Shown one piece after another: positions 1 through 55,885 of a stretch of DNA of 64,000 nt. The stretch comes from Gemmatimonadota bacterium. GTDB lineage: Bacteria > Gemmatimonadota > Gemmatimonadetes > Palauibacterales > Palauibacteraceae. Position 1 is the first letter of the stretch, and each line of letters opens with the position of its first letter. The notes under the pieces are model-generated. The model was not told where the DNA came from. It was given only the letters and a program-made list of their open reading frames with translations, and did not search any database. The stretch spans positions 1,230 through 65,229 of the forward strand of contig JBDHAD010000034.1 in NCBI GenBank assembly GCA_039588215.1, read 5' to 3'. A program made the translations under genes and the position numbers.

Positions 1-2769
1 ACGGCTCGTCTCGCGGAGACCGCCGAGACCGAACCTGAGCTATATGAGCCCCTGCGGCGGTTGCTCGCGGCGAGCAACAGGACCGATGAGCTGCTGGGCC
101 GTCTCGAGGATCTGATCTCGCATCCTCCCGATCTTGCAGCAGCTCCGGCGACGCACCAGACCTCGCCCGTCCCGGACCCCCACGGACTCATCGGACGCAC
201 CATCTCTCACTACGAGGTGGTCGACCTCATGGGGGCCGGAGGGATGGGCGTGCTGTACAAGGCGGTCGATACGCGACTCTCCCGCACGGTGGCCCTGAAG
301 TTCCTCCCGCCGCAGTGGGGTCTCGATGAGACGTTCAAGAAGCGCTTCCTGAGAGAGGCGCGGGCGGCCGCGGCGCTCGACGACACCAACGTCTGCACGA
401 TTCACCAGATCGGCGAGACGGAAGACGGGCGGCTGTTCATCGCGATGCCGTTCTACGAAGGGGAAACCTTGCGGGACAAGATCGCCCGCGGTCCGCTCGA
501 GGTGGAAGAGGCTCTGGACCTCGCGCGGCAGGCAGCGCGAGGGCTAGCGGTGGCCCACGGTGAAGGATTGATCCACCGCGACATCAAGCCTGGAAACCTT
601 ATCGTCCCGGATGGAGGCGCGCTCAAGATCCTCGACTTCGGGGTGGCGAAGACGGACGAGACGGCGCTGACGGACGTCGGGGTGCGCCTTGGCACGCCAG
701 CTTACATGTCCCCTGAACAGACCCGCGGCGAGGACCTGGACGAGCAGACCGACTTCTGGTCCCTGGGCGTGGTCCTGTACGAGATGCTCACGGGTCGTCC
801 CCCCTTCCGCGGGGACAACCACAGTACCGTAATCCACGCCATCCGACACGACCAGCCAGAAGCGCCGGAGCGCTTGCGGGACGACATTCCAGCCGATGTC
901 ATCACGCTCGTTCGGGGGCTCCTCAGCAAGGACCCGGCGGGTCGGCGGGAGGCAGCGGCGCAGCTGACCGGTCAGCCGAGCCCGTCCCGCGAGGTCCGGG
1001 CGGACGGACCGTGGAGGCTCTTTCACGAGATCCACCAACGCTCTCTATGGCAGGTGCTGGGGGTCTACCTGGGCGGCGCCTGGCTGACGCTGTCGGCGGT
1101 GGACATGCTCGAAGGCGCCCTCAACCTGCCCGAATGGGCGTCCCCGCTGGCCCCCGTTATGCTTATCGCCGGCCTTCTGGTCGTCGTGGCAACCGCGTTC
1201 GTGCAGGGAGGGGTCGGCGCGGCGAGAGGGCACACACCGCAGCCGCCGGTTGTCCGCGGCTCTGCATCTCGGAGTGTCCTTACGTGGCGCAACACGCTCT
1301 TCGGTGGGATCACGGCCGCTCTCGTCTGGGCGGGAGTCGCGATCGGCTGGCTCCTGTTCGGCGGGCGACCCGGCCCGGGCGTGGGAGCGCCAACCGACAC
1401 CGACTCCGCGCTGCGATCGCGTCCGCCGTCACTGGCCGTGCTGCCGCTCAAGAACTACTCGGAGAGTCCGGGGCAGGATTACCTCGCCGATGGAATGACG
1501 GATGAGTTAATCACTACGTTGACGAAGATCGAGGCGCTGCGGGTGATCGCTCACCAGTCCGTACGACGCTTCAAAGACTCCGAGCTATCCGTGCGCGAGA
1601 TCGCGGACTCGTTGGGAGTGACACACGTGGTGGGCGGATCCGTGCTGCGGGACGGAGAGCAGGTGCGGATCACGGCCAGTCTGATCGATGCAGAGACCGA
1701 CACTCCGATATGGGAGGATCGCTTTCAGCGGGGACTGGGCGACGTGATGGCGCTGCAGCGCGAGGTGGCGCTGGCGATCGCGCGGGAGATCGAGATCACA
1801 CTTACGCCAGAGGATGAGGCACGCCTCGGGTACGCTTCGGAGGTCGATCCGGAAGCATTCGATTTCTACGTGAAGGGGACGCAGGCGCGGTACAAACTGA
1901 CCCCGGAGGCATTCGAAGAGGCGGCGGCCTACTTCGAGCAAGCCATCGCGCAGGACTCCAGCTATGCACCGGCCTGGGCCGGGTTGGCCTGGGTGCTCCC
2001 GTCCCGGGGAAAGGACGCGTATCGAGCGAGCGAGTACGCGGAAAGGGCGGTCGAGCTGGATCCGGGCTCGGCCGAGGCCCATGTCGCGCTCGGACTGATC
2101 CGAGAGTTCCACGACTGGGACTGGGTGGGCGCGGGAGAGGCCTTCCGGCAAGCAATCCGGCGGAATCCTGGGCATGCGGAGGCCCATCTCGAGTTGAGTA
2201 TGCTCCTGATGCGGCTGAAGCGGTTCGACGAGGCGCTGCGTGAGGCGCAGCAGGCGCTGTACCTGGCCCCCATGTCGGCGCGCTTCGAGATGGGCCTGGG
2301 GCAGGTCTATCATTTCAGTGGCCGCTACGACGAAGCGCTGGAAACGGCGGTGAGGGCCCGTGACCTGGATTCGGATTCGTATTTTCCTTACCTGCTCTCG
2401 GGATGGGCGTTTGCAGAGCTGGGACAGTATGAGACGGCGGTTGAGGCATTCAACAACGCCAGGGCACTCGGGTGCGACTGCCTTTCAGATCTCGGATACG
2501 TCCATGCCGTCTCGGGCAGGCGCGCGGAGGCCCTGACGCTTCTCGAAACGTTGGAAGCTAATATGAGAAGGGAGGAAGCATCTGCCCCCTATGACATTGC
2601 GGTCGTCTATGCGGGACTCGGAGACCGGGAACAAGCTCTCGACTGGCTGGAGCGGACGGTCGAGAGCGGGGCGCCGGGACTTGGGATCTACTTGGGCATC
2701 GACCTCCGACTCCGCTCCCTGCACGAGGAGCCGCGCTTTCAGGCCCTGCTCGAAGAGGTGGGACTCTAA
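1..2769 (+). CDS. Ser/Thr protein kinase with TM segments, a periplasmic LPL-N-type sensor module and C-terminal TPR repeats. The 5' end is probably outside the window.
   Basis: Frame 1 is open from base 1. Kinase motifs are present: GAGGMGVLYKA, HRDIKPGN, DFG, and APE-like YMSPEQ. Hydrophobic segments follow, then TPR-like repeats up to the stop at 2769. Confidence 0.85.
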   Translation, partial: TARLAETAETEPELYEPLRRLLAASNRTDELLGRLEDLISHPPDLAAAPATHQTSPVPDPHGLIGRTISHYEVVDLMGAGGMGVLYKAVDTRLSRTVALKFLPPQWGLDETFKKRFLREARAAAALDDTNVCTIHQIGETEDGRLFIAMPFYEGETLRDKIARGPLEVEEALDLARQAARGLAVAHGEGLIHRDIKPGNLIVPDGGALKILDFGVAKTDETALTDVGVRLGTPAYMSPEQTRGEDLDEQTDFWSLGVVLYEMLTGRPPFRGDNHSTVIHAIRHDQPEAPERLRDDIPADVITLVRGLLSKDPAGRREAAAQLTGQPSPSREVRADGPWRLFHEIHQRSLWQVLGVYLGGAWLTLSAVDMLEGALNLPEWASPLAPVMLIAGLLVVVATAFVQGGVGAARGHTPQPPVVRGSASRSVLTWRNTLFGGITAALVWAGVAIGWLLFGGRPGPGVGAPTDTDSALRSRPPSLAVLPLKNYSESPGQDYLADGMTDELITTLTKIEALRVIAHQSVRRFKDSELSVREIADSLGVTHVVGGSVLRDGEQVRITASLIDAETDTPIWEDRFQRGLGDVMALQREVALAIAREIEITLTPEDEARLGYASEVDPEAFDFYVKGTQARYKLTPEAFEEAAAYFEQAIAQDSSYAPAWAGLAWVLPSRGKDAYRASEYAERAVELDPGSAEAHVALGLIREFHDWDWVGAGEAFRQAIRRNPGHAEAHLELSMLLMRLKRFDEALREAQQALYLAPMSARFEMGLGQVYHFSGRYDEALETAVRARDLDSDSYFPYLLSGWAFAELGQYETAVEAFNNARALGCDCLSDLGYVHAVSGRRAEALTLLETLEANMRREEASAPYDIAVVYAGLGDREQALDWLERTVESGAPGLGIYLGIDLRLRSLHEEPRFQALLEEVGL

Positions 2770-2839
2770 GCAAACCCTTTCTAGCTACGTCGCAAGCGCT
2801 CGGGGTCGCTGTTCGCCTCTCTTCACGTCAAACATCTAG

Positions 2840-3117
2840 ATGCACGAAAGCCCGCATGGTTGCGGGCTTTCTCGTAATCGGGGCGGCGAGATGGCCTGCG
2901 ATCGCTCCGCGATCCGGCGATCTCCCGCCATGTACATCCAGGTCACACGGTGCAGCATATCAGGGCGGCGAGATTCAAACTCGCGACCTCCTGAACCCCA
3001 TTCAACCGGCGCAGCACGCATACACGTCGATACACTTCAGCACACACCGATTGGGCCGTTTTGACCTCCGTACACTTCCGTACAAACCTGCACACTCTGT
3101 GACAGCTAGCGTGACAG
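2840..3117 (-). repeat. Junction repeat J1: hairpin, a ~70-bp minihelix module, tRNA-Pro(GGG) 3'-half copy (2 substitutions), and an arm of 10-bp iterons ending in GTGACAG
   Basis: Aligns by eye with the repeats at 5018, 15014, 17961, 19234 and 23106, and with the tRNA-Pro 3' half at 26328. The GGGGCGGCGAGAT segment occurs twice (2880 and 2963). Confidence 0.85.
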
Positions 3118-3339
3118 TTCGATAGCTCTCGCTTCCCTGCTAGAGAGCCAAGCTCCAGGTTGCGTCACTCCCCCTGGCATACCGATACTACGGCCGGTGG
3201 CTCCTGAATCGCCGGGCGTTCTCTTCACGTAGCGTCCACGCTTCGGGGGTACCTCTCGAAGGAAAACCCCGTGGAGGTTGTCCTTCTCATCTCATCTGCT
3301 CGCATCTCGCGGTTGCAGATCATCATCAGGAGCGACGAC

Positions 3340-3951
3340 ATGACTGAATGGTGGTGGAAGGCCGATTACTACGAGACGTGCAACTGCGCCTACGGGTGCC
3401 CATGCAACCTGAGCTCGTTGCCCAGCGACGGCACCTGCAAGGCGATCGATGCGTGGCACATCCGCGAGGGCATGGCAGGCGATGTCCGCCTCGACGGCTT
3501 GAGCATCGCGCTCCTGTGTCACTGGCCCAATCCCATTCACGAGGGCAACGGCTCTATCGTCGTGTACATCGACGAACGCGCCGACGAGGCGCAGCGCGAG
3601 GCGCTCGCAGCCATCTGTGCGGGGGATGCCGGACCGGGGGGGCCATTCGAGATCTTCGCTGGCACGTGCACGGAGCCACCGAGGGTCGTCTACGGCCCCA
3701 TTACGCTCGAGCGCAATGGCAAGAGCGCGACCATGCGTTGTGGAGACCTGGGGCGAGCCGATCTCGGTCCGGTTATCTCGGCGATGGATGGCTCCGAGGC
3801 GGACATCCGCATGGTAATGCCCGGAGGGTTCATCTGGAGTGACGGCCATATGGTCAACACGGATGTGTGCGAGGTCGATACCGGCGACTTCAGCTTCCGA
3901 TTCGCCGACTCGAGTGCCTTTCTCTCCGAGGTCGAGTACAACCTTTCCTGA
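3340..3951 (+). CDS. DUF1326-family protein
   Basis: N-terminus MTEWWWKADYYETCNCAYGCPCN is typical of DUF1326. It is followed 4 nt later by a DUF2182-like partner, which is the usual pairing. Confidence 0.7.
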   Translation: MTEWWWKADYYETCNCAYGCPCNLSSLPSDGTCKAIDAWHIREGMAGDVRLDGLSIALLCHWPNPIHEGNGSIVVYIDERADEAQREALAAICAGDAGPGGPFEIFAGTCTEPPRVVYGPITLERNGKSATMRCGDLGRADLGPVISAMDGSEADIRMVMPGGFIWSDGHMVNTDVCEVDTGDFSFRFADSSAFLSEVEYNLS

Positions 3952-5017: not shown

Positions 5018-5215
5018 ATGCACGAAAGCCCACGATCCACGTGGGCTTTCGGCGCAATCGGGGCGGCGAGATTCGAACTCGCGACCTCCTGAACCCCATT
5101 CAAGCGGCGCAGCACCCGTACACTTCGATACACTTCCGTACACACCGATTTCGGCGTTTTGACTTCCGTACACTTCCGTACACTCCTGCTCACTCTGTGA
5201 CAGCTAGCGTGACAG
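5018..5215 (-). repeat. Junction repeat J2 (canonical form): hairpin, 46-nt tRNA-Pro 3' half, and 5 copies of the CGTACACTTC-type iteron ending in GTGACAG-N5-GTGACAG
   Basis: Positions 5057-5102 are identical to 26326-26371, which is the tRNA-Pro 3' part plus flank. The hairpin stem has compensatory changes relative to other copies. Confidence 0.9.
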
Positions 5216-26320: not shown

Positions 26321-26327
26321 GGCGCAA

Positions 26328-26401
26328 TCGGGGCGGCGAGATTCGAACTCGCGACCTCCTGAACCCCATTCAGGCGCGCTACCGGGCTGCGCCACGCCCC
26401 G
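26328..26401 (-). tRNA. tRNA-Pro (anticodon GGG)
   Basis: Manual cloverleaf, 74 nt: acceptor CGGGGCG/CGCCCCG, D stem GCGC/GCGC, anticodon stem CCTGA/TCAGG with loop AUGGGGU, T arm GCGAG-TTCGAAT-CTCGC. Confidence 0.9.
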
Positions 26402-26502
26402 ATGTGGATGGGAAGGGGAAGCTATGCCCTGGCGCACGCTGGTCAAGCAACCCGCGGGGGTTGATCTTGGCCCCGGTCTTGCGTATCTATATATTCGCAT
26501 TT

Positions 26503-29334: not shown

Positions 29335-29384
29335 GGCGTCCTCCTTAGGTGCAGATGAACCTGCGCGAGTGAGTTGGAGGAGAG

Positions 29385-29458
29385 TCGGGGCGCCCGGATT
29401 TGAACCGGGGACCTCTGCGTCCCGAACGCAGCGCTCTACCGGACTGAGCCACGCCCCG
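29385..29458 (-). tRNA. tRNA-Pro (anticodon CGG)
   Basis: Manual cloverleaf, 74 nt, anticodon loop UUCGGGA. Confidence 0.9.
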
Positions 29459-29524
29459 AATTGTGAAGCCCACCGCAAGCCGCCCAGGCCCACAGCGAGC
29501 TTTCGAGCCCGAGCGAGTCGGGCA

Positions 29525-29597
29525 AGCGGGTGACCGGATTCGAACCGGCGACCTCAACCTTGGCAAGGTTGCGCTCTGCCAGCTGAGCTACACCCGC
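29525..29597 (-). tRNA. tRNA-Gly (anticodon GCC)
   Basis: Manual cloverleaf, 73 nt: GCGGGTG acceptor, anticodon loop UUGCCAA. Confidence 0.9.
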
Positions 29598-29646
29598 GTA
29601 TCTGACTGGGCGGCGACCCGCTATCCGCTGGCCGTCTACCCGCGAG

Positions 29647-29718
29647 AGCCACCGGTCGGATTTGAACCGACGACCGCTCGATTACGAATCGAGTGCTCTA
29701 CCCCTGAGCTACGGTGGC
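29647..29718 (-). tRNA. tRNA-Thr (anticodon CGU)
   Basis: Manual cloverleaf, 72 nt: GCCACCG acceptor, anticodon loop UUCGUAA. Confidence 0.9.
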
Positions 29719-29800
29719 GTTCTTCCCGTTCTTCTGTCCCCCCGTCAGGCTCGGCCCCAGGTCCCCGGGAAGGACGCGACTTATAGCTGACGGGGTGGAG

Positions 29801-29862
29801 TGGAGCCGGCGGGACTCGAACCCGCGACCTCTTGAGTGCGATTCAAGCGCTCTCCCAACCCC
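29801..29862 (-). pseudogene. Truncated tRNA-Ala(CGC)-like sequence lacking the 5' D-stem and most of the 5' acceptor strand
   Basis: Intact T arm (GCGGG-TTCGAGT-CCCGC), anticodon arm (CTTGA-AUCGCAC-TCAAG) and GGGAGAGCGC. Only GGGGTTG lies upstream, and there is no GCTC D-stem partner. Confidence 0.5.
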
Positions 29863-29891
29863 AACCTCGCGATCGGGGATCCTGCGTGGAA

Positions 29892-29966
29892 CGGGGCTGA
29901 CGGGACTCGAACCCGCGACCTCCGGTGTGACAGACCGGCACTCTAACCAAACTGAGCTACAGCCCC
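29892..29966 (-). tRNA. tRNA-Asp (anticodon GUC)
   Basis: Manual cloverleaf, 75 nt: GGGGCTG acceptor, anticodon loop CUGUCAC. Confidence 0.9.
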
Positions 29967-30026
29967 TTGCAAACAGCGTGCGACCGATCGGTCGCTTCGG
30001 GAGGGGGCGCCCAGGTCCCCTCCGAG

Positions 30027-30100
<74 letters not shown>

Positions 30101-35500: not shown

Positions 35501-35800
35501 GGCCGCCCGGTCACCGATGGCGAGGTCACGACCGCATGCCAGCAGGGGTGCCCGACCAACGCGATCGTGTTCGGGAATCTCAAGGACCCGAACAGCGAGG
35601 TGTCCCGGATCGCCAGAAGCGCCCGCGGCTACCACCAGCTGGATGAGCTCGGGACGAGGCCGGCGATCACCTACCTGCACGACGTGACGCACGCCGAGCT
35701 GGCCGAGACGGGACACGGCGAAGAGCACGCCGACGAGGAGCACAACGGCGGCGAAGACGACGCGGCCGAGGGCTCCGCCGGAGAGGGCGAGGAGCACTGA
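32546..35800 (+). CDS. actB: Alternative complex III subunit ActB (molybdopterin-oxidoreductase-like domain fused to a 4Fe-4S ferredoxin domain)
   Basis: Twin-arginine motif NRRDFLKVLGV. Large MopB-like body. C-terminal Cys clusters (CTGCGACVTAC, CQHCGDAPCEPVCP, CVGTRYCSNNCP, CTFC). The start codon is uncertain; GTG at 32546 is the first in-frame start after the actA stop. Confidence 0.8.
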   Translation: MKRPDEVRLEAAGPGAPGAEAANGNGCGCGSGGCGNGANAGQADAGATARTEATNGGTNRRDFLKVLGVGGVGAAAAACGPPHFADKLLPRLVHEQEIIPGVSDTYATVLADAGPEPLAIHASVRDGRVLKLEGNPDFPTNGGRLSAIGQSALQDLYDPDRVPNPQRRTAGGATAEAAEGEADEGAAAAFQNATWDDAVAALGAAVQQGGTVLVTGAVTGTAADFYAQWAAATGAEHVAFETFEYSALRGAHQAVFGQDAIPHYDLAAADRIVSFGADFLGTWLAPVELSAGYSAARDVEAGRHAEFTFVGPRLSLTGTNADDWIHARAGTEAAVALAVAGVVAAQRGVTPPSGVASFTPEAVADATGVDAETIRTLGEELAAASAPIALPPGFEAQGPDALEAHAAIATLNQVLGAEGRTLHLDRGPNRGETASFADMTALIGRMRSGQVRTLIVAGANPVFGLPAAAGFGEALSNVANVFALSSHMDETVAAAGWVLPTHHALESWGDAEPRPGVYALGQPLMNPIFDTRQREDILLQVAAIAGAGDALGAADYAIYLRNAWSARVGDGAGWLDALRAGGVYETAAGDVASGGDATGSAATGAAAPTAAAGAAGGAASATPAGTPSFSQPSAQSGTQLVVYPTVQFYDGRGANRSWMQELPDPITRAVWNSWVEMHPDMAESLGVEHGDVVEVRSDAGAVQAPVFVYRGIRPDTIAIPIGQGHTAYGRSAAGVGVNPLDLLPATADPSSGALAFAGTTVQVTPTGEHTRLIHTQGSDTDLDREIAQVLNVDQAMTEIQEHRVDLTELVENAWDSDPNSPYRWGMTIDLNSCTGCGACVTACYAENNIPTVGEEMVALRREMSWMRVYRFYEEKADGGFHTVHQPQLCQHCGDAPCEPVCPVYATYHNPEGLNVQVYNRCVGTRYCSNNCPYKVRRFNWFEYEFPYPLNLQLNPDVTVRSKGVMEKCTFCVQRINRAKLDAKEEGRPVTDGEVTTACQQGCPTNAIVFGNLKDPNSEVSRIARSARGYHQLDELGTRPAITYLHDVTHAELAETGHGEEHADEEHNGGEDDAAEGSAGEGEEH

Positions 35801-37593
35801 TGGCGACTGCCGAGCTCGAGGCGCGCACGGTGCACCTCACGATGGCGGATGCCAACGAGGACATCTCGCGTCCGATCTCCAAGCCGGCGCTCCGCTGGTG
35901 GCTGCTCCTCGGTGTGACCGTCCTGTTGATCGGGGTCGGCGCGGCCGCCTGGTTCTACCAGATCGGCGTGGGCCTCGGAGTGGCGGGCATCACCCACCCG
36001 GTGATGTGGGGCGTCTACATCACGAACTTCGTCTTCTGGGTCGGGATCGCGCACAGCGGCACGCTCATCTCGGCGATCCTGTACCTGTTCCGCTCGGGGT
36101 GGCGCACGACCATCAACCGCGCGGCCGAGGCGATGACGATCTTCGCCGTGATGACGGCGGGCTTGTTCCCGCTCATCCACCTAGGGCGTGTGTGGTACTT
36201 CTATTGGCTCATGCCGTACCCGTCGCAGCGTCAGATCTGGCCCGACTTCCGGTCGCCGCTGGTGCTCGACGTGTTCGCGGTGGGCACCTACTTCACGATC
36301 AGCCTGATCTTCTGGTACACAGGCCTCATCCCTGACCTGGCGGCGCTCAGGGACAAGTTCAGCGGGATGAAGAGCAAGGTGTACGGCGCCCTATCGCTCG
36401 GGTGGACCGGCACGGTCAACGAGTGGCGGCACTACCGGCGCGCGTATCTCTACATGGCGGGGATCGCGACACCGCTCGTGCTCTCCGTGCACAGCGTCGT
36501 GTCGTGGGACTTCGCGATGAGCATCGTCCCCGGATGGCACTCTACCATCTTCGCCCCCTACTTCGTGGCGGGTGCCATCTTCTCGGGGATTGCGATGGTG
36601 ATCACCTTGATGGTCCCCCTCCGATGGGCGTTCGGGTTGGAGGACTACATCACGGAGTACCACTTCGAGAACATGGCGAAGCTGTTGCTCCTGACCTCCC
36701 TCATCGTGGGCTACGCCTACGGGGCGGAGTATTTCCTCGCCTGGTACTCGGCCGACCCGATCGAGCAGGAGAGCTTCCTGTGGCGGGCGCGCGGCCACTA
36801 CGCGCTCCCGTTCTGGATCATGGTGTTCTGTAACGTTGTGGTCCCGATGTCCTGCTGGTTCAGACGGATCCGCCGCAGCATCAAGGCGCTGTTCGTGATC
36901 TCGATCTTCGTGAACATCGGGATGTGGTACGAGCGCTTCGTGATCATCGCCTCGTCGCTGGCGCACGAGTTCGATCCGGGCGGCTGGGGGATCTACACGC
37001 CGAGCTGGGTGGAGATCGCGATCCTGGTCGGGAGCTTCGCCTGGTTCTTCTTCTGGTTCCTGATCTTCACGAGGACGCTCCCGACGATCAGCATCGCCGA
37101 GGTGATGGCGCAGTACACGAGCCTCGGCGACACGGAGGGGGCGATCCGGAGACTCCGCGACGCGGGGCATGTGGACCTTCAGGTGTGGTCGCCCGTCCCG
37201 TCCGAGGCGCTCGAGGAGGCGATGGACATCCACGGCTCACCCGTGGGACGGTGGGCGCTCATCGGCGGCGTGACCGGGTGTGTCACCGGGCTGCTGCTCA
37301 CGGCCGGGACGTCGCTCGGCTACCCGCTCGTGACGCAGGGTAAGCCGATCGTCTCGATCCCGCCGTTCATCGTGGTGATGTTCGAGCTGACGATCCTGCT
37401 CACCGGGATCTTCGCGCTCATGGCCATGCTCGTGCACGCACGCCGCCCGAAGCGGGATCTGTCGCCTCATTACCGTCCCGAGTTCTCGGTCGACCGCTTT
37501 GGCGTGTACGTCCCCGCCGGCCAGTGGGATCTCTCCGAGATCGAGGAGCTGGTCCGGGACACGGGCGCGGTAGACGTGGAGACCGACTCGTGA
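35800..37593 (+). CDS. actC: Alternative complex III ActC (NrfD-like) continuous with an ActD-like (DUF3341) C-terminal region
   Basis: ATGA overlap with the actB stop. ~10 TM helices of the NrfD/PsrC type. From about residue 435 the sequence (EGAIRRLRDAGHVDLQVWSPVPSEALEEAMD, then 2 TM) matches ActD, with no intervening stop. Confidence 0.75.
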   Translation: MATAELEARTVHLTMADANEDISRPISKPALRWWLLLGVTVLLIGVGAAAWFYQIGVGLGVAGITHPVMWGVYITNFVFWVGIAHSGTLISAILYLFRSGWRTTINRAAEAMTIFAVMTAGLFPLIHLGRVWYFYWLMPYPSQRQIWPDFRSPLVLDVFAVGTYFTISLIFWYTGLIPDLAALRDKFSGMKSKVYGALSLGWTGTVNEWRHYRRAYLYMAGIATPLVLSVHSVVSWDFAMSIVPGWHSTIFAPYFVAGAIFSGIAMVITLMVPLRWAFGLEDYITEYHFENMAKLLLLTSLIVGYAYGAEYFLAWYSADPIEQESFLWRARGHYALPFWIMVFCNVVVPMSCWFRRIRRSIKALFVISIFVNIGMWYERFVIIASSLAHEFDPGGWGIYTPSWVEIAILVGSFAWFFFWFLIFTRTLPTISIAEVMAQYTSLGDTEGAIRRLRDAGHVDLQVWSPVPSEALEEAMDIHGSPVGRWALIGGVTGCVTGLLLTAGTSLGYPLVTQGKPIVSIPPFIVVMFELTILLTGIFALMAMLVHARRPKRDLSPHYRPEFSVDRFGVYVPAGQWDLSEIEELVRDTGAVDVETDS

Positions 37594-39618: not shown

Positions 39619-39924
39619 GCGTCTCGGTCCACGATGCGCTTGGGATGAAATGTCCCACGCGCCTGTAGCCCACCCCGTTCGCGCCGCCACGAATCAAGCC
39701 ACCTGGCCTGTATTTCTGCGTTTCCGATGGCATCGAAGCGGGTGGCCCGCATCTGGCTCACGGATGTCCCAAATCACTCCCCACTGACGCGGAGGGCGAG
39801 GCCCGGTGATGACCCGTACGCAGGGGCAGGCGAACGTGTGGACGATCCCGATGGCACCGCTGGGGCCTGCTGACCGCCGAATTCCTCCTCGCTCGCCTTC
39901 CCGGCCGAAGGGCTAGGTAGGAAG

Positions 39925-40443
39925 ATGGCCCTGCCTCGCATTCGTCGTGCGCTCGTGCGCGTGGTCCTGCCGATCCTGCTGGTCGTGCTCGCCATCCGAC
40001 TCGCGGTCGGGCATGAGCCCGCGGTGCCCCAGCCCGTGCAATTCAACCACCTGAAGCACACGCAGGAGCTGCAGCTGACGTGCGACTTCTGCCACAAGTA
40101 CGTGCGTCAGGGCGCGCACGCCGGTCTGCCCGGCGCCGAGACTTGCTCGATGTGCCATTCCGCCCCGCAGGGGACATCCGAGGAAGCCGCGAGGGTGACC
40201 GAGCTCCTCTCTGAGGGCGACCCGTTGCGGTTTGCCAAGCTGTTCCGGCTGCCGGACCACGTGTTCTACACGCACCGACGACATGTCGGGATCGGCGAGC
40301 TGGAATGCGCCAACTGTCACGGCGCGATCGCCGAGACCGAGCGCCCGCCGGAGCGGCCTTTGATCCGCATGACCATGGAGTTCTGCATGGACTGCCACCG
40401 CGAGCGGGAGCAGACCCTCGACTGCAACGCCTGCCACCGCTGA
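39925..40443 (+). CDS. Membrane-anchored pentahaem cytochrome c (ActA/NrfB-like)
   Basis: N-terminal TM segment. Five CxxCH motifs (CDFCH, CSMCH, CANCH, CMDCH, CNACH). Confidence 0.8.
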   Translation: MALPRIRRALVRVVLPILLVVLAIRLAVGHEPAVPQPVQFNHLKHTQELQLTCDFCHKYVRQGAHAGLPGAETCSMCHSAPQGTSEEAARVTELLSEGDPLRFAKLFRLPDHVFYTHRRHVGIGELECANCHGAIAETERPPERPLIRMTMEFCMDCHREREQTLDCNACHR

Positions 40444-40458
40444 TGCGAGGCCGGTGAG

Positions 40459-42822
40459 ATGAGCGTAGACCGACGAGAGTTTTTGTGGGCGATGGGCGCC
40501 GCCGGCGCCGGACTGGCCATGCAGGGATTGCCGAGCGTCTTTTGGACGACCGATCAGACGCCCGATCCCGGCTGGGCGCCCGGCCTCGAGGACCACCTCA
40601 ACTCCTCGTGTCTGGTCTGCCCCGCGCGCTGCGGGATCCGGGGCCGCGTGGTGGACGGGCGGCTCGTCAGGATTTCCGGTAACCCTCTGCACCCGATGAG
40701 CCGCGGAGGTGTGTGTCCACGTGGGATCGCTGGCGTGCAAATGCTTTATCACCCGGAGCGACTCGCCTCGCCGATCGCGCGCGTGGGCGCGCGCGGGGGC
40801 GACGAGTGGCGGGCGATCACCCAAGAAGAAGCGATCGCGCTCATCGTCGAGCGCTTGGGAGCTCTCCGGACGGAAGGTCGGCCGGAAGGGCTGGCGCTCC
40901 TCGCCGGCTACTGCGCGGGCAGCGTGCAGGATTCGTGGAGCCATTTCCTGCAAGCGTTCGGGTCGCCGAACTACGTGCCGGATGATTATCCCGACGCGAC
41001 GGACTCGCTCATGGGGCTCGTGCACGGGATCGCACAGCGACCCAGCTACGACCTCGCGAGGGCGTCGCTGGTGCTCTCGTTCGGAACTCCGTTGTTCGAA
41101 TCGTGGTGGTCGCCGCTGCAGGCGTTCACGGCGTTCTCCGACCCACAAGAACCGGAGGGGCCGCGACCGCGATTCGTCCAGGTCGATACGCGCTTCTCGC
41201 GCACTGCCGCCCGATCCCAAGAATGGGTCGGGATCCGTCCCGGCACACATGCGGTCCTAGCGCTCGGCATCGCGTACGTGCTGATCCGAGATCAGCTGTT
41301 CGACGTCGACTTCGTCTCGGAGCGGGTGACGGGATTCGAGGACTACACGGGTCGAGACGGGCAGGTTCGAGAGGGATACCGCTCGATCGTCTCGCGCAAT
41401 TACCGAACCGAAGAAGTCTCGGCGATCACCGGCGTGCCCGTGGAGCGGATCGCCGCTCTGGCTCGGGCGATCGCGGAGAACACGCCGGCGATCGCGGTGT
41501 GTGGCGCGGACGTGACCCTGGCGCCCAACGGATTGTTGGCCGGCCTGGCGGTTCACAGCTTGAACGTCCTCGTCGGGAGTCTCAACCGCCCCGGCGGGGT
41601 TCTCTTCCGCGAGGACACGCCGCTGGCGCCGCTGGCGCCGCTCGTGCGGGACGAAACGTCCCGCGTAGGTCTGGAATCCGAGCCCGTCGGACAGGCGAGG
41701 CCGGCATTCGGACGGGGCGATCCGGCTCGGGACTTCGCCACGGCCGTCGCGGAGAGCGAGAGCACGGCGATAGAGGCCCTGCTCCTCTACTACGCCAACC
41801 CGTTGGCTTCGTCGACGCATCCCGAAGTCTGGTCGGCGGCCCTCGAGAAGATCCCCTTCGTGGTCAGCTTCTCGCCGTTCCTGGACGAAACGGCGCGGCA
41901 TGCCGACCTCGTGCTTCCCGATCTGCTTCCGTACGAGCGCTGGCAGGATGCTCCGACGCCCTCGTCGTATCCATACCCCGTTTGGGGCGTCTCACGGCCC
42001 CTGGTCGAGCCACACGGGGGAGGGCTCCATACCGGTGAAGCGGTCCTGGCGGTTTCCAGGGGCCTGGGCGGCGGCGTCGCCGAGAGCCTCCCGTACGAGA
42101 ACTTCGAGACACTTCTCAAGGCGCGGGCGCGCGGGCTGTTCGAGGCCCAGCACGGCATGCTTCTCGGAAGCGACTTCGAGCAGCGTCATCACCGCCAGAT
42201 GGAGGAGCGTGGCTGGTGGCTGGCCGAGCACGCGGAGTTCGACCCGTTTTGGAGCGATCTCGTCGAGCGGGGCGGGTGGATGGATCCGCACTACGACCAC
42301 ACCGACCCGGCCCGGTTCTCCGAAACGACCAGTGGCCGCATCGAGCTCTTGCCCCCCGCGTTGCTCGAAGCGCTCGACTCGGAGGGCCGCGGCCGGAGAC
42401 CCTACCTCGAGACCACGATCGGCTACGAGGGCGATGAGGAGGAGTTCCCGCTTCGTCTCGTCCCGTATCGTGTGTCGACGCTCGCTTCGGGCACGCTCGG
42501 CCTCGAGCGCTGGATGGCGGAGGTACCGGGACTGTTCCCGGAAATCCACTGGGATCCATGGATCGAGATCAACCCGGAGACCGCACACTCGTTGGGGCTC
42601 GGCGACCGCACGATGGTGTGGGTGGTGTCCTCGCGCGCCAGGTATCGTGCCCGCCTGAGGGTGTTCCCCGGCACCGCGCCCGACAACGTGGGCGCGCCGT
42701 ACGGGTTGCGACACCCCGACGGGGAACTCGCGAGCCCCCTCCAGATACTCGTAGGCTCGGCTGACCCGCTGACGGGGTTGCCGAGCTGGCATTCCACCCG
42801 AGTCCGCCTCGAACGGGCGTAG
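40459..42822 (+). CDS. Tat-exported molybdopterin (bis-MGD) oxidoreductase catalytic subunit, PsrA/TtrA-like
   Basis: Tat motif DRREFLWAMGAAGAG. FS0 cluster motif CLVCPARCGIRG...VCPRG. ~787 aa MopB-type body. Confidence 0.8.
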   Translation: MSVDRREFLWAMGAAGAGLAMQGLPSVFWTTDQTPDPGWAPGLEDHLNSSCLVCPARCGIRGRVVDGRLVRISGNPLHPMSRGGVCPRGIAGVQMLYHPERLASPIARVGARGGDEWRAITQEEAIALIVERLGALRTEGRPEGLALLAGYCAGSVQDSWSHFLQAFGSPNYVPDDYPDATDSLMGLVHGIAQRPSYDLARASLVLSFGTPLFESWWSPLQAFTAFSDPQEPEGPRPRFVQVDTRFSRTAARSQEWVGIRPGTHAVLALGIAYVLIRDQLFDVDFVSERVTGFEDYTGRDGQVREGYRSIVSRNYRTEEVSAITGVPVERIAALARAIAENTPAIAVCGADVTLAPNGLLAGLAVHSLNVLVGSLNRPGGVLFREDTPLAPLAPLVRDETSRVGLESEPVGQARPAFGRGDPARDFATAVAESESTAIEALLLYYANPLASSTHPEVWSAALEKIPFVVSFSPFLDETARHADLVLPDLLPYERWQDAPTPSSYPYPVWGVSRPLVEPHGGGLHTGEAVLAVSRGLGGGVAESLPYENFETLLKARARGLFEAQHGMLLGSDFEQRHHRQMEERGWWLAEHAEFDPFWSDLVERGGWMDPHYDHTDPARFSETTSGRIELLPPALLEALDSEGRGRRPYLETTIGYEGDEEEFPLRLVPYRVSTLASGTLGLERWMAEVPGLFPEIHWDPWIEINPETAHSLGLGDRTMVWVVSSRARYRARLRVFPGTAPDNVGAPYGLRHPDGELASPLQILVGSADPLTGLPSWHSTRVRLERA

Positions 42823-42834
42823 GGGGCGCGCACG

Positions 42835-43518
42835 ATGCCACGCTGGGGGATGGTGATCGACCTCGATCGTTGCACGGGGTGCGCCGCGTGCGAGCTGGCG
42901 TGCAAGAGCGAGAACAACATCCCCACCGTCAGCCCCGAAGAGGCCGAGGCGGGGCGCGCCATGGCCTGGATGAAGGTCCAGGTGGAGATCGAGGGGGAGT
43001 TCCCCGACACCTCCATGAACTTCTTCCCCCGCCCCTGCATGCATTGCGACAACCCGCCGTGCATCCGGGTGTGCCCGGTCGTGGCGACCTACATCGATGA
43101 CGAGGGAATCGTGGGACAGATCTACCCGCGCTGCATCGGTTGTCGCTACTGCGCCAACGCCTGCCCCTACACGGTGAAGTACTTCAACTGGTACGGACCG
43201 GAATGGAGCGAGTCGGAGCGGCGGCACCTGAATCCTGACGTCTCCGAGCGACCCAAAGGGGTCATCGAAAAGTGCACCTTCTGCCACCACCGACTGCAGA
43301 AGGCGAGGGAGGATGCGCAGGCGGAGGGACGGGATCTCAGGGAGGAGGACTATCAACCGGCGTGCGCCGAGGTGTGCCCCACCGGCGCCATCCTGTTCGG
43401 CGACCTCGAGAACCCGAACCACCGAGTGGCGGAGCTCAAGGAAGATCCACGAGCGACCCGATTGCTGGAGGACCTGGGGACGGAGCCGAAGGTCTACTAC
43501 CTGAGGACGAGAGAGTAG
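42835..43518 (+). CDS. 4Fe-4S ferredoxin-type subunit (PsrB/DmsB-like)
   Basis: Four Cys clusters: CTGCAACELAC, CMHCDNPPCIRVCP, CIGCRYCANACP, CTFC...CAEVCP. Confidence 0.85.
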   Translation: MPRWGMVIDLDRCTGCAACELACKSENNIPTVSPEEAEAGRAMAWMKVQVEIEGEFPDTSMNFFPRPCMHCDNPPCIRVCPVVATYIDDEGIVGQIYPRCIGCRYCANACPYTVKYFNWYGPEWSESERRHLNPDVSERPKGVIEKCTFCHHRLQKAREDAQAEGRDLREEDYQPACAEVCPTGAILFGDLENPNHRVAELKEDPRATRLLEDLGTEPKVYYLRTRE

Positions 43519-43519
43519 C

Positions 43520-45217
43520 ATGTCGCCCGAAGCGCGGGCCAAGCTGGCGACGATGAGCGAAGACGAGCGCGCGCTCCTCAAACCGCTCCTCGAGACGTCG
43601 CGGACCTTTTACGTGGTGGCGTCGTTCCTGGGCTTTATCGTGCTTTGGGGGCTCTTCGCCTACTATCTGCAGGTCCGGCACGGGCTCGGCCGCACGGGGC
43701 TGAATCGGCCCGAGTATTGGGGCATCTACATCATCTGCTTCGTCTTCTTCATCGGGATCAGCCACGCGGGGACCCTCATCTCGGCGATCCTTCGAGTCAG
43801 CAAGGCGGAGTGGCGGCGGTCGATCACGCGCTCGGCCGAGCTGATCACGGTTCTGGTCATCGGATTCGGCGCCATCCAGCCGATCGTCGACCTCGGGCGA
43901 CCCGACCGGGCGTTGAACATCATTTTCAACGCGCAGCTGCGCTCGCCACTCCTGTGGGACGTCATCAGCATCGGGCTGTACTTCACCGCCTGCACGATCT
44001 ATCTGTATGTCCCGATGCTGCCGGATCTGGCGCGCATCCGTGACCTCAAGATCAAGGCGCCGCGCTTCTACGGATTCCTCGCCGGCGGGTACCAGCACAC
44101 ACCCTCACAGCGAGCCACCCTGGAGCGGGTCATCGGTATCCTGTCGATCGTAGTGATCCCGATAGCCATCTCCGTGCATACCGTCATCGGGTGGATCTTC
44201 GCCATGACGCTGCGGCCGATGTGGCACAGCACGATCTTCGGCCCGTACTTCGTCATGGGAGCGATCTACTCCGGGATCGCCGCGATCCTGGTCGCGATGG
44301 TGATACTGAGGCGGGTGTACCATCTGCAGGACTACTTCAAGCCCGTACACTTCGACTATCTGGGGCGTCTGCTCCTCGTGTTCAGCCTGTTGTGGTTCTA
44401 CTTCACGTTCGCCGAGTATCTCACCGTCTTCTACGGCGCGGAGCCGGCGGAGATGCGGACTTTCTGGGCCAAGGTCACCGGGCCCTTCGCGTTGCCGTTC
44501 TGGACCATGGTGATGGGGTGTTTCTTCGTCCCGCTGTTCCTCATGTCACGGCGATCGACACGCACGCCGAAAGGTACGATGATCGCGGGTATCGCCGTAC
44601 TGATCGGCATGTGGCTCGAGCGGTTCAACATCGTCGTACCGACATCCGTGAATCCGATCTGGGAGTTCGAGTCACTGGGACGCTACCTCCCGTCCTGGAT
44701 CGAGATCTCGATCATGTCCGCGACCTTCGCCGGGTTCGTGCTGCTGTACATGATCGCGACTAAGTTCGTCCCGATCGTCTCCATATGGGAGATGGAGGAG
44801 GGGCGGAAGGAGTCGGTGACCTCGACCTCCGAGCGCGTCTGGACCTACTTGCCTCAGCCAAAGGGCGCCGAGCAGATCCTCCGCATTCTCGGTCATCTCG
44901 CGACCGTCGATTTGGCGGTCCAGGAGCAGGAGATCGAGCTGATCCACGGGTTCGCCCGTAGGTGGAATATCCCAGCTCCGGAGCTGAGCCCGGGAGCCGT
45001 CACCGGAGAGAACAGCCTGCCGAAGCTGCGCGAGGCGGTGCAGGATTACTTGGAGTACGAGCCGTCACCCAACCAGGCGACTCAGCTTCTCGAGGTCCTC
45101 AAGATGCTCGTCCGGGCGGACGAGCAGGTGACCCGCGAGGAGGAGAAGGTACTGCTAGAGATCACGCACCTCATCGGCGAGTACCTGAAGACCGCTCCGT
45201 CTGGTGCAGCCGCTTAG
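43520..45217 (+). CDS. NrfD/PsrC-like polytopic membrane subunit with a ~145-aa soluble C-terminal TerB-like extension
   Basis: Membrane part resembles ActC (WGIYI.CFVFFIGISHAGTLISAILR). The tail has two ...xD(L/E)xVxxxExxL... repeats, like the TerB fold. Confidence 0.7.
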   Translation: MSPEARAKLATMSEDERALLKPLLETSRTFYVVASFLGFIVLWGLFAYYLQVRHGLGRTGLNRPEYWGIYIICFVFFIGISHAGTLISAILRVSKAEWRRSITRSAELITVLVIGFGAIQPIVDLGRPDRALNIIFNAQLRSPLLWDVISIGLYFTACTIYLYVPMLPDLARIRDLKIKAPRFYGFLAGGYQHTPSQRATLERVIGILSIVVIPIAISVHTVIGWIFAMTLRPMWHSTIFGPYFVMGAIYSGIAAILVAMVILRRVYHLQDYFKPVHFDYLGRLLLVFSLLWFYFTFAEYLTVFYGAEPAEMRTFWAKVTGPFALPFWTMVMGCFFVPLFLMSRRSTRTPKGTMIAGIAVLIGMWLERFNIVVPTSVNPIWEFESLGRYLPSWIEISIMSATFAGFVLLYMIATKFVPIVSIWEMEEGRKESVTSTSERVWTYLPQPKGAEQILRILGHLATVDLAVQEQEIELIHGFARRWNIPAPELSPGAVTGENSLPKLREAVQDYLEYEPSPNQATQLLEVLKMLVRADEQVTREEEKVLLEITHLIGEYLKTAPSGAAA

Positions 45218-45248
45218 AATCCTCCGTAATGACCGCGGGACGGGAGCC

Positions 45249-46508
45249 ATGATGTCACACCGACGGTACACGTACCTGAAGCTGATTTGGGTGACGGCGG
45301 CGGTCACGACCTCGGCGCTTATCGTCGCGCCCGACACCCAGGCCCAAACGGATAACGCCATCCCCGGTGACCCCGTCGCCGGCCGACGATTCTTCGTGGA
45401 GCACGACTGCGTGCGGTGCCACTCGATCTGGGGAAACGGCGGCACTTTGGGTCCCGATTTCGCCACCCTCGGTACGGGACGGAGCCTCCAGCAGCTCGCC
45501 GGGCTGTTCTGGAACCACACGCCGCGAATGATCGAGACCGTCCGGGGGCGCGGCTTCGAGTGGCCCCAGTTCAGCGAAGAGGAGTTGGCCGATATCATCA
45601 GCTATGTCTACTACGTGAAGCTGTTCGACGAACCGGGCGACTTCGATCTCGGCGAGCGGTGGTTCCAGGAGAAACGTTGTTCAGCGTGTCACTCGGTCGG
45701 GGGCGTAGGTGGTCGCTCGGGCGGTGCGCTCGATCAGTACGCGCGTTACATCGCACCGGTCGCGCTGGCGCAAGGGATGTGGAACCACGGTCCCGCCATG
45801 CAATCGCTGCAGATGACGAGCGGGATTGCGATGCCGACGTTTCTTGGGCGAGAGATCGCGGACCTGCAGGCGTATATCCGCGGAGCTTCGACGCTGCGGG
45901 ATCGAGAAGTAGCTCTCCTCCCGCCCCCCAATCCGAATCAGGGACGGCAGCTGTTCTCGACCAAGGGCTGCAGCGCCTGTCACGGGCGCCGCGGCAACGG
46001 CACCTCGTTTGGCCCCGATCTGCGCGAGGCCACCCAGCACATGCGGGTATCGGAAATCGCAGGCCGTCTGTGGAACCACTCGGCACGGATGGTGTCTGCC
46101 GTGCGCAGCCGGGGCATCGAATTCCCCCGTTTCGAAGGAACGGAAATGGCGGACATCATCGCCTTCCTGTACTACCTCCGGTTCTACGATACGGAGGGGG
46201 ACTCGCGAAGGGGTGCTGAGGTGTTCGTGCAGAAGGGCTGCGCGGTATGCCACGCCCGTGACGGAGAAGCGACGGTCGGACCCGACCTGGCTGGCACACA
46301 GTCGGTCCTCACGCCGCTCGGTCTCGCCACGGCCATGTGGAATCACGCACCAGCCATGTACGACCTCGCGCAGGTTCAGCATACGGAGTGGCCCGTATTC
46401 GAGGGGAATGAGATGCGGGACCTTTCCGCCTACCTGCACGATGTGGCAACCGCACGGGTAGCAGGCACGGGGAGCGAGCCCGAGCCGGACGACGGGAGCG
46501 ACCGCTAG
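45249..46508 (+). CDS. Secreted tetra-domain class I cytochrome c (4 monohaem repeats)
   Basis: Signal peptide. Four CxxCH motifs (CVRCH, CSACH, CSACH, CAVCH), each followed ~35 aa later by a WNH(x)xxM motif. Confidence 0.8.
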   Translation: MMSHRRYTYLKLIWVTAAVTTSALIVAPDTQAQTDNAIPGDPVAGRRFFVEHDCVRCHSIWGNGGTLGPDFATLGTGRSLQQLAGLFWNHTPRMIETVRGRGFEWPQFSEEELADIISYVYYVKLFDEPGDFDLGERWFQEKRCSACHSVGGVGGRSGGALDQYARYIAPVALAQGMWNHGPAMQSLQMTSGIAMPTFLGREIADLQAYIRGASTLRDREVALLPPPNPNQGRQLFSTKGCSACHGRRGNGTSFGPDLREATQHMRVSEIAGRLWNHSARMVSAVRSRGIEFPRFEGTEMADIIAFLYYLRFYDTEGDSRRGAEVFVQKGCAVCHARDGEATVGPDLAGTQSVLTPLGLATAMWNHAPAMYDLAQVQHTEWPVFEGNEMRDLSAYLHDVATARVAGTGSEPEPDDGSDR

Positions 46509-47332
46509 CGTCCGCTGGCCGTCGCCCCGGCAGCCCGCGCTTGCAGATACTCGATGATCGCGTCCGCCTCCTCGGTCGTGAGGGGCGTCACATCCATCAG
46601 GGGCATGTTCGCCTGCATCCGTCGGACGAGGTCGGCCCAGCCCGCGGCCGTATGCGCGGTCGCGGAAGGGAGCTCGTGGCAGGTCGAGCACTTCTGGACC
46701 ACGAGCTCGGAACCCGGGCCCGTGTACTGACCCGGTTCCGCGGCCGGCATTGCGTTGCGTTCCAGATAGGCGATCAACGAGTCGACGTCCGAGGGCTGCG
46801 GGAGCGCGGCCGTGCCCAGCCCGGCGATCAGGATCTCACCCAGGAGACCCTCGGTCACGGGCCCGCCCAGCCGGTCAGCGAGCGTCTCCGCCCGCATCAA
46901 CATCCGACGCGTCAGGAGGGGCCACTCGGCCGCGGTGTGCATCTGGGGATCCGGAAGCCAGTGACATTGAGTGCAATACGCCTGCAGGAGCGCCGGGCCG
47001 CGCGTGTTCGGCTCGGGGAGATTCTCCCGCTGGAAGCTCGTCAGAGGCAGCCCGGCACCCACCGAGCTGATCATCCGCCACCTCTGCGAACGCGTCATGG
47101 CCGCGGTCGGGATACCCCCGAGCTCGGAGAAGACGCTGTCCAGCATGGCGACCGTGTGCTCGGCATCGGTGACTGGCTGGCCATCCACACAACCCACGGC
47201 GAAAACGCCGAGGGTGGCGCAAACCAGGGCTGACCGACCGCCGCTCAACCAGCGGCCGCCGCTCGTGGGTGTTCTAGTCGCAGACGAGTTCATCGCTCTC
47301 CCTTCCGTAGCCTCACCCGGCCGGGACCCCAA
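46505..47332 (-). CDS. Dihaem cytochrome c lipoprotein
   Basis: Lipobox FAVGC. CTQCH and CSTCH motifs. The exact start is uncertain. Confidence 0.65.
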   Translation of the reverse strand: MGSRPGEATEGRAMNSSATRTPTSGGRWLSGGRSALVCATLGVFAVGCVDGQPVTDAEHTVAMLDSVFSELGGIPTAAMTRSQRWRMISSVGAGLPLTSFQRENLPEPNTRGPALLQAYCTQCHWLPDPQMHTAAEWPLLTRRMLMRAETLADRLGGPVTEGLLGEILIAGLGTAALPQPSDVDSLIAYLERNAMPAAEPGQYTGPGSELVVQKCSTCHELPSATAHTAAGWADLVRRMQANMPLMDVTPLTTEEADAIIEYLQARAAGATASGR

Positions 47333-55134: not shown

Positions 55135-55360
55135 TCGATCCCTCTCCTGCCCGAAGGCCGGCGCGAGCGGGTGCCCGTTCGGGTGCTCGGTCCGACCATT
55201 GCTCGTCAGACATCTACGTCGGCAGAGCCTCTATGTCGATTCGGAAACCCGTACCCCACATGCACACTTCGGTACCCGATACCACGGCCACGTCGTATCT
55301 TGATCCACTGTGGAGTGGGTGTGTGGGCTATAGTCGGCCATTCCCTATCCAGGAGAAAGC

Positions 55361-55885
55361 ATGCGAGGAAACGTGTCAAACCGACGATCCGTCCCGATGA
55401 CTCTGTTGCTCGGCGGGGTTTTGGCCGCGTGTGGCGGTGCGGACGGATCCCAGGCGGCGGCAAACGGGGCCGCGCCCGAGCCCATGCTGCAGGAGGGTAA
55501 TGCACAGCTCGCGAACGCCACGATCCACGTGTACAAGGCCCCCGACTGAGGGTGCTGCGAAAAGTGGGTGGTGCACCTACGAGCGATGGGGTTCAACGTA
55601 GAGGTGGAAGAGACGGATCAGTTGCTGGACGTCAAGGCGGAGCACGGGGTTCCCAAACATCTGGAAGCCTGTCATACGGCGACCGTCGACGGCTACGTGA
55701 TCGAGGGACACGTTCCCGGAGACGTCGTGGCGCGGCTTCTCGAGGAGCGACCTGCGGTCGCGGGGCTGGCGGTACCTGGCATGCCGATCGGGTCGCCCGG
55801 GATGGAGATGGGTGATCGAGTCGATCCGTACGACATCTTCACGTTCGACGAAGCAGGCGCGACGACGGTGTTCGAGAGCCGCTAG
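55361..55885 (+). CDS. DUF411 / CopG-family periplasmic copper-binding lipoprotein interrupted by an in-frame TGA (55547-55549) at the first Cys of the CxCC motif
   Basis: Lipobox LAAC. The two track ORFs (55361-55549 and 55568-55885) are in the same frame. The combined reading is ...VYKAPD-TGA-GCCEKWVVHLRAMGF...CHTA..GY.IEGHVP...GLAVPGMPIGSPGME, which is collinear with DUF411. Confidence 0.6.

Follow-up and report, generated by a model that had tools for sequence, protein, structure and literature searches.

The question raised by this locus is how a TGA codon is read that lies in frame within an otherwise intact gene of the DUF411/CopG family. The gene is encoded on the forward strand of a 64,000-nucleotide stretch of DNA from a Gemmatimonadota bacterium (contig JBDHAD010000034.1, 70,963 bp), which is called the window throughout and is meant at its full length. 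Its reading frame opens with ATG at 55361, runs through 62 open codons to a TGA at 55547-55549, and continues for 111 more in-frame codons to a TAG at 55883-55885. From the conservation of this TGA, the selection acting on either side of it, its alternation with cysteine codons in relatives and a hairpin that follows it, we conclude that the in-frame TGA is real and very probably a selenocysteine (Sec) codon.

The TGA within a DUF411/CopG gene

The first-pass annotation had described two open reading frames (ORFs) that share one frame and are parted only by the TGA at 55547-55549, and the sequence bears this out. Translation through the TGA likewise gives the predicted lipoprotein that it had proposed, reading ...IHVYKAPD-[TGA]-GCCEKWVVHLRAMGF..., in which the signal MRGNVSNRRSVPMTLLLGGVLAA and the cysteine after it are succeeded by a short linker and then by the DUF411 domain. 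The features of the gene are given below; the window's clade, to which some of them refer and on which selection was measured, consists of the window and the related loci L001, L002, L084 and L085.

55361..55885, + strand: full coding sequence of the proposed DUF411/CopG-family selenoprotein, 174 codons including Sec63, stop codon TAG (sequence, homology, purifying selection on both halves)
55351..55355, + strand: Shine-Dalgarno site AGGAG, 5 nt 5' of the start codon (kept in 5 of 5 members of the window's clade)
55361..55432, + strand: predicted lipoprotein signal peptide MRGNVSNRRSVPMTLLLGGVLAA followed by C, lipobox L-A-A-C, Cys24 at 55430-55432 (motif reading and conservation in the clade)
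55547..55549, + strand: in-frame TGA, proposed Sec63, at the first Cys position of CxCC (alignment to homologs, conserved TGA in relatives)
55547..55558, + strand: U-G-C-C motif (TGA GGG TGC TGC), counterpart of the C-x-C-C copper-cluster motif of CopG (6WIS alignment)
55661..55804, + strand: stretch matched by the Pfam DUF411 model, residues 101-148 (...CHTATVDGYVIEGHVP...GLAVPGMPIGSPGME)

The lipoprotein export signal is predicted from its motif, which is conserved in the clade. The family assignment is supported by a match to Pfam PF04214 (DUF411) over the full model length of 1-48 (E=2e-25, 88.7 bits against a cut-off of 27) and by a match to the structure of Pseudomonas aeruginosa CopG (6wis_A, E=8.5e-31), in which query residues 55-171 align with chain residues 5-120. 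This protein (6WIS/6WJE) is the sole solved relative of the window protein. In the 6WIS alignment, D-[TGA]-G-C-C of the window lies on N-C-G-C-C, so that the TGA corresponds to the first cysteine, and full-length homologs read YK[SA]PTCGCC at the same site. The placement of the TGA at the first cysteine of the CxCC motif, as originally suggested, is thus confirmed by the Pfam match, the structural alignment and the motif of the homologs. The family motifs CC, CHT, GHVP and MPIGSPGME are all present; with TGA at the first cysteine position the motif reads UxCC (U denoting Sec), and it is complete only if the codon is decoded as Sec or Cys.

The interrupted frame is not a chance pattern: of the window's 477 in-frame TGAs with 25 or more open codons to either side, this one ranked first under a codon-usage model for coding potential both before and after it. 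TGA is also the commonest ordinary stop in the window, where it ends 25 of the 44 long ORFs, and it terminates 45 of 78 DUF411 genes of the TGA form. Given this use of TGA as an ordinary stop, the code is the standard one, and context decides how the internal TGA is read.

Conservation of the codon and selection on both halves

In the databases, the two closest relatives of the read-through protein are only 99-100 amino acids (aa) long. Gene callers split the gene into products of 50-62 aa and 99-100 aa, and the 90%-identity cluster to which the downstream fragment belongs has 11 members, every one of 99 aa, so that all of them are truncated at the same place. At the nucleotide level, the contigs of the two closest relatives, from Logan SRR27875393, ENA ERZ6007643 and Logan SRR2915416, carry TGA at the same codon together with a homologous open upstream frame, and further syntenic contigs were found in five JGI metagenomes. 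The TGA is kept at this codon in L001, L002/L003, L084 and L085-L089, and the downstream half shows 92-95% protein identity between independent assemblies from different samples. The TGA form is also present in long-read complete chromosomes (OY759970.1, OZ220736.1, OZ220728.1, OZ244976.1, OY760074.1 and CAXXVU020000002.1).

Within the window's clade, synonymous divergence (dS) amounts to 0.35-0.74, with no frameshifts or second stops. The ratio of nonsynonymous to synonymous divergence (dN/dS) is 0.14-0.33 over the 62 upstream codons and 0.07-0.17 over the 111 downstream codons; both halves of the gene are under purifying selection.

These data bear on the two alternatives named in the first-pass annotation, a recent nonsense pseudogene and an assembly error, both of which are excluded by the conservation of the TGA in diverged relatives, the selection and the independent assemblies. 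A pseudogene would fit a gene that is intact apart from a single in-frame stop. Here, however, the TGA has been kept over dS values of 0.35-0.74 in a gene free of frameshifts and further stops, dN/dS lying well below 1 to either side of it, and the same codon is TGA in lineages that are 45-60% identical and in at least 119 species. Neither relaxed selection, nor a lineage-restricted lesion, nor further disabling mutations were found, which leaves a pseudogene extremely unlikely. An error in sequencing or assembly that replaced TGC or TGT would require a change of one base only, but the identical TGA occurs in independent Logan, ENA and JGI assemblies of different runs and in the long-read complete chromosomes, and the probability that we attach to such an error is close to negligible.

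A third possibility is that the gene is functionally split or truncated, with translation stopping at the TGA and either a 62-aa lipopeptide or an internally initiated C-terminal fragment as the real product. This corresponds to what the gene callers annotate, which is two products, and an internal ATG at 55586 serves as their start for the truncated 99-aa product. This ATG lacks a Shine-Dalgarno site, and the restart methionine of the window's clade is not conserved elsewhere, most TGA forms having N, H or S in its place; these two properties argue against a split gene. Across the TGA forms compared, no conserved restart codon or Shine-Dalgarno site was found 3' of the TGA. In addition, a restarted fragment would lose the export signal and the first cluster ligand, and the 12 codons that separate the TGA from the ATG at 55586, among them those for the CC of the motif, show the conservation of a coding sequence. 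A split gene is therefore very unlikely in our assessment.

Alternation with cysteine and the hairpin after the TGA

Metagenome contigs were scanned with the protein as query, that is, by protein similarity only, which gave 80 loci of 43-61% identity. At the codon aligned with the first cysteine of CxCC, 15 of these 80 loci have TGA and 65 have TGC or TGT, which is the kind of TGA and cysteine orthologs at one codon that the original proposal of a Sec/Cys pair called for. That proposal is strongly supported by this alternation together with the conservation of the TGA under purifying selection. The TGA forms fall in at least five positions of a rough neighbour-joining tree. Every one of them has an in-frame upstream signal peptide, with either a lipobox or a sequence resembling twin-arginine (TAT) signals, SRRQFL or ARRSLL. 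Signals of the twin-arginine type (SRRQFL, ARRSLL) were seen in L069/L070, L018, L030, L125, L143 and L167, and the lipobox in the window's clade; TGA forms other than the window's carry signals of the general secretory (Sec) or TAT pathway. Given the different signal types, the selenoprotein would leave the cytoplasm by different routes in different lineages, and export by the TAT route would imply folding, and perhaps copper loading, ahead of export.

To the right of the TGA, the first-pass annotation had proposed a stem formed by GGGUGC (55550-55555) and GCACCU (55573-55578) as a bacterial selenocysteine insertion sequence (SECIS). This stem exists, with 6 bp, a 17-nt loop and -7.6 kcal/mol, but it is not conserved: the 5' arm reads GGC, GAC or CCC in relatives, and a 17-nt loop lies outside the bacterial model, so that it was rejected as the SECIS. 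The hairpin that is conserved is more compact and reuses the 3' arm of that stem:

55564..55580, + strand: candidate bacterial SECIS GUGGGUG-GUG-CACCUAC, 7 bp, apical loop GUG (G-GUG-C) (comparison of TGA and Cys forms, model criteria)

The candidate overlaps the codons for K-W-V-V-H-L-R and starts 14 nt after the UGA, with 21 nt from the UGA to the loop. Published criteria for bacterial SECIS (bSECIS) elements comprise an apical loop of 3-9 nt, an upper stem of 4-16 bp, a minimum free energy (MFE) of -7.5 kcal/mol or lower, a G in the first two loop positions and a distance of 16-37 nt from the UGA (PMC13188914). The 55564-55580 hairpin falls within this model on every count: its spacing lies within the 16-37 nt range, its loop fits N1-G[G/U]N-N2 as G-GUG-C, and its energy is -7.5 kcal/mol bare and -8.9 to -10.9 kcal/mol with flanks.

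Because the hairpin lies on a conserved W-V-x-H-L peptide, which alone could in principle produce it, TGA forms were compared with Cys forms (17 and 63 unique forms, respectively, with the hairpin at +18 to +34). The loop codon is G[G/U]N in 15 of 17 TGA forms as against none of the 63 Cys forms (Fisher p=2e-14), and at least 6 contiguous bp are found in 15/17 TGA forms versus 11/63 Cys forms (p=1e-7). The mean free energy of the hairpin is -8.0 kcal/mol in TGA forms versus -4.2 kcal/mol in Cys forms (p=3.6e-6). In the TGA forms, the leucine is encoded solely by CTA or CTG, the preceding codon ends in G and the following codon starts with C, whereas the Cys forms vary freely at all three of these positions. 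Sec forms have Val or Gly at the loop codon, where Cys forms have Asp, Glu, Lys, Ala and others; the RNA constraint has overridden the residue that the protein prefers at this codon.

The distribution of the form was extended by a scan of one genome per GTDB species with the Sec-specific DNA pattern TGANNNTGYTGYNNNNNNTGGGTNGKNCAYCTRC, which matched at least 119 species genomes in about nine phyla. Among the matches listed, all 80 of 80 have a signal peptide, then xPT-U-GCC..WV[V/G]HL and then about 112 residues. By their record titles, the 80 matches listed were assigned as follows:

Gemmatimonadota: 31
Acidobacteriota (mostly Vicinamibacterales): 12
Methylomirabilota / Rokubacteria: 12
"Deltaproteobacteria", Myxococcota, Binatia and Desulfobacterota: 10
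Chloroflexota: 5
Actinomycetota (Acidimicrobiales; one labelled Bifidobacterium, probably mis-binned): 3
Nitrospinota: 2
Verrucomicrobiota: 2
Unclassified: 2
Tectomicrobia: 1

The search pattern held most of the hairpin, and these loci therefore test it solely at the unconstrained columns. At one such position, column 24, a G:C pair with column 40 is present in 89 of 94 sequences, and the equivalent pair is seen in 24/63 Cys forms. RNAalifold, applied to 94 unique TGA forms, returned the same helix as the only consensus structure.

The minimal SECIS of Escherichia coli fdhF consists of a 17-nt upper hairpin with a GGU-containing apical loop, an 11-nt spacer and a bulged U. The candidate of the window resembles it as an in-frame 17-nt hairpin soon after the UGA in which G followed by G or U opens a small apical loop. 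It differs in the absence of a bulged U, in its 14-nt spacer and in having no conserved extended lower stem.

Two side observations were made in the scanned genomes. A metagenome-assembled genome (MAG) labelled "uncultured Bifidobacterium sp." (L160, CAZWCU010000299.1) carries a TGA-form DUF411 gene in a context near-identical to that of the Acidimicrobiales/Ilumatobacteraceae MAGs L149 and L154, and the contig is probably mis-binned or mislabelled. In Vicinamibacterales (L116 at 965-3900, L155 and L164), the TGA-form gene adjoins lepA (EF4), which is followed by signal peptidase I; a SelB-like tblastn match beside DUF411 in this group turned out to be LepA/EF4 (TIGR01393, E=2e-295).

Under the proposed explanation, the gene at 55361-55885 would give rise to one exported CopG/DUF411 lipoprotein, with UGA codon 63 specifying Sec in place of the first CxCC cysteine, one of those that hold the tetranuclear copper cluster in CopG. 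The hairpin at 55564-55580, through its apical G-GUG-C, would recruit SelB carrying Sec-tRNA(Sec) to the ribosome, where this complex would outcompete release factor 2 along the ordinary bacterial route. The product would be UxCC-CopG, a periplasmic copper-handling protein with a selenolate replacing the thiolate; to judge from its homologs, Sec63 would serve as a ligand of the cluster or as a redox residue, and the protein may act as a Cu(I)/Cu(II) oxidoreductase or in copper transfer.

Several observations weigh against this explanation. When the 64-kb window and related loci amounting to about 1 Mb were searched with E. coli SelA, SelB and SelD (tblastn), no selA, selB or selD was found, and ARAGORN found no tRNA-Sec in the same sequences, the window giving eight tRNA calls. 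The window itself belongs to Gemmatimonadota, one of its proteins falling into a cluster at 90% identity or more with MFQ5690013.1, a protein that NCBI assigns to a Gemmatimonadota bacterium. A profile search among 50%-identity representatives, narrowed by a filter for a high-GC amino-acid composition, led to Gemmatimonadota SelA; one such protein, MEJ2186936.1, has more than 100 close relatives, many of them named Longimicrobiales or Gemmatimonadetes. That SelA is common in Gemmatimonadota, the phylum of the window, speaks in favour of the explanation, the Sec machinery being placed at the level of the phylum only. As for the hairpin, it is short, its bare energy of -7.5 kcal/mol stands exactly at the threshold of the model, and a weaker version is present in some Cys forms (11/63). 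True covariation in the stem is minimal because the stem arms are also codons. Stretches of 74 nt after the TGA fold no better than shuffled sequences (z = -0.2 to +1.2) and gave inconsistent MFE structures, the compact hairpin alone recurring. In an Rfam search, neither a SECIS nor another relevant family was detected at gathering or permissive thresholds.

The common hairpin is also absent from two TGA forms, L027 and L028 (GCCGDW...). L027 (3055-3108) has a different hairpin, GGUGAUUG-GGU-CAAUCACU, shifted about 5 nt upstream and again with a GGU loop, and in L028 (2915-2968) no hairpin was found that agrees with the bSECIS model. These two may represent an independent switch from Cys to Sec with its own SECIS.

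The alternative on which these points bear most directly is that the UGA is read through or recoded, not as Sec, either as Cys brought by a tRNA(Cys) that resembles tRNA(Sec) and works with a SelB-type factor, or by hairpin-stimulated near-cognate insertion of Trp or Cys. It would accord with the small size of the hairpin and with Sec machinery that is placed at the level of the phylum, Sec being the residue that we infer at this codon. Yet the site is a metal-binding cysteine, the classic place of Sec/Cys pairs, and the hairpin, its G[G/U] loop included, fits the SECIS model of the SelB type. SelA is, moreover, common in the phylum, and TGA acts as a normal stop in the rest of the window and at the ends of many TGA-form DUF411 genes. 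Recoding to another residue is, on this evidence, unlikely, and decoding as Sec is preferred.

SelA was also found in Tectomicrobia and Deltaproteobacteria. The neighbourhood of selA in Gemmatimonadota (L211-L219) is conserved and includes valS, a gene for a CarboxypepD_reg-domain protein, selA, a HAD-type hydrolase gene and a nearby IscA/HesB-like gene. The HesB-like gene was considered as a possible selenoprotein gene and rejected, being an ordinary Cys form with its own Shine-Dalgarno site.

Genomic context, known relatives and significance

The neighbours of the gene in the window encode an amidohydrolase, a cupin, a SnoaL-like protein, an Flp pilin and PBP1A. No copper genes were found among them, and the locus is not a copper-resistance cluster. 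In a crude motif scan, P-type ATPases or multicopper oxidases were near only a minority of TGA or Cys forms.

Elsewhere in the window, positions 39913-47332 (and also 35800-37593) hold a respiratory cluster resembling alternative complex III, with membrane subunits of the NrfD/PsrC type. Within it, an ORF for a multihaem cytochrome c (CxxCH motifs) ends at a TGA at 40441 and is followed in the same frame by a 787-aa molybdopterin-oxidoreductase-like protein with a TAT signal (40459-42822). This TGA was considered as a recoding candidate and rejected, as it merely divides two adjacent genes of the same frame; none of the other in-frame TGA candidates in the window was convincing. The JGI label of the 787-aa protein, "anaerobic selenocysteine-containing dehydrogenase", is the generic name of COG0243, and no in-frame TGA was found within its gene. 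At 90% identity or more, the 597-aa ORF at 35800-37593 groups with proteins of related contigs that have 448-449 aa and 166 aa; this long ORF may have arisen by fusion of two genes found apart elsewhere, or may be a call extended too far over both. Six tRNA genes (Pro, Gly, Thr, Ala, Asp and Val) are clustered on the reverse strand at 29384-30100, the tRNA-Ala among them scoring only 33.9 bits in Rfam, and a separate tRNA-Pro lies at 26327-26402. A 92-nt "tRNA-Thr" called by ARAGORN at 5057-5148 is unsupported by Rfam.

The nearest known systems are CopG of P. aeruginosa (PA2807-type, 6WIS/6WJE) and CutG of Rhodobacter capsulatus (DUF411, PF04214), which share family, size and exported location with the window protein. 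The features C-x-C-C, CHT, GHVP and MPxGSPGME of these proteins are kept in it. Unlike them, the window protein has its first CxCC cysteine position encoded by UGA, is predicted to be lipid-anchored and not soluble, and is encoded outside any copper-resistance cluster. In PMC8456105, the conserved Cys and Met residues of CopG are described as copper ligands and the protein as having copper oxidoreductase activity and contributing to copper resistance under anaerobic conditions; the role of the cysteines in a tetranuclear copper cluster is given there with reference to Hausrath 2020. The tetranuclear cluster and the oxidoreductase activity are known only for P. aeruginosa CopG (PMC8456105). By homology to CopG, the window protein would be a copper-cluster protein, for which Cu(I)/Cu(II) oxidoreduction or copper transfer can be proposed (PMC8456105).

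Predicted selenoproteins that bind metals have been listed before and include a cation-transporting P-type ATPase with UxxC, CopZ-family and YHS-domain proteins, an SO_0444 Cu/Zn efflux protein (UxC) and MerT-like and mercuric-reductase-like proteins (PMC13188914, Table 1). As in those proteins, Sec would take the place of a metal-ligating cysteine in heavy-metal handling, and the case was found through Sec/Cys pairing and a downstream bSECIS. The family and fold are different, however, and the motif is the UxCC of a multinuclear copper cluster. The taxa also differ, the present ones belonging mainly to aerobic soil and sediment phyla (Gemmatimonadota, Vicinamibacterales, Rokubacteria) and not to Desulfobacterota or Clostridia.

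Among the papers searched, none mentions both DUF411 and selenocysteine. A 2026 review tabulates 119 prokaryotic selenoprotein families with their Pfam and NCBIfam identifiers and Sec motifs, and its main text has no entry for PF04214, DUF411, CopG or UxCC, although its supplements could list one. Likewise, the main texts of deep-Sep and BSepDB do not mention the DUF411 family, which their supplementary tables could still list. No model of NCBIfam release 20 matches the window protein, and we found no earlier description of a biological Se-Cu site of the selenolate-bridged multinuclear type. In every record seen, automatic annotation splits TGA-form genes into two "hypothetical" fragments, and through this splitting a whole selenoprotein family becomes invisible in databases. 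This new selenoprotein family would use the ordinary bacterial mechanism, and its novelty lies in the family itself and in the chemistry of the site.

A broader proposal, for which we see the chances as evenly balanced, is that UxCC DUF411/CopG forms a natural selenolate-bridged multinuclear copper cluster and ranks among the selenoproteins with a wider spread in aerobic phyla of soils and sediments (Gemmatimonadota, Vicinamibacterales, Rokubacteria and others); the Sec form and its in-frame SECIS would have spread or arisen repeatedly across about nine phyla. The hairpin offers a compact and well-sampled candidate for a bacterial SECIS, the constraints of which visibly override the protein sequence. 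If the decoding is confirmed, a copper-cluster protein would join the short list of metal-ligating selenoproteins and provide a natural Cys/Sec pair in which the tuning of a Cu(I)/Cu(II) redox site by selenium could be studied. Three phyla that soils harbour in abundance, Gemmatimonadota, Acidobacteriota and Methylomirabilota, would also be seen to make substantial use of selenium.
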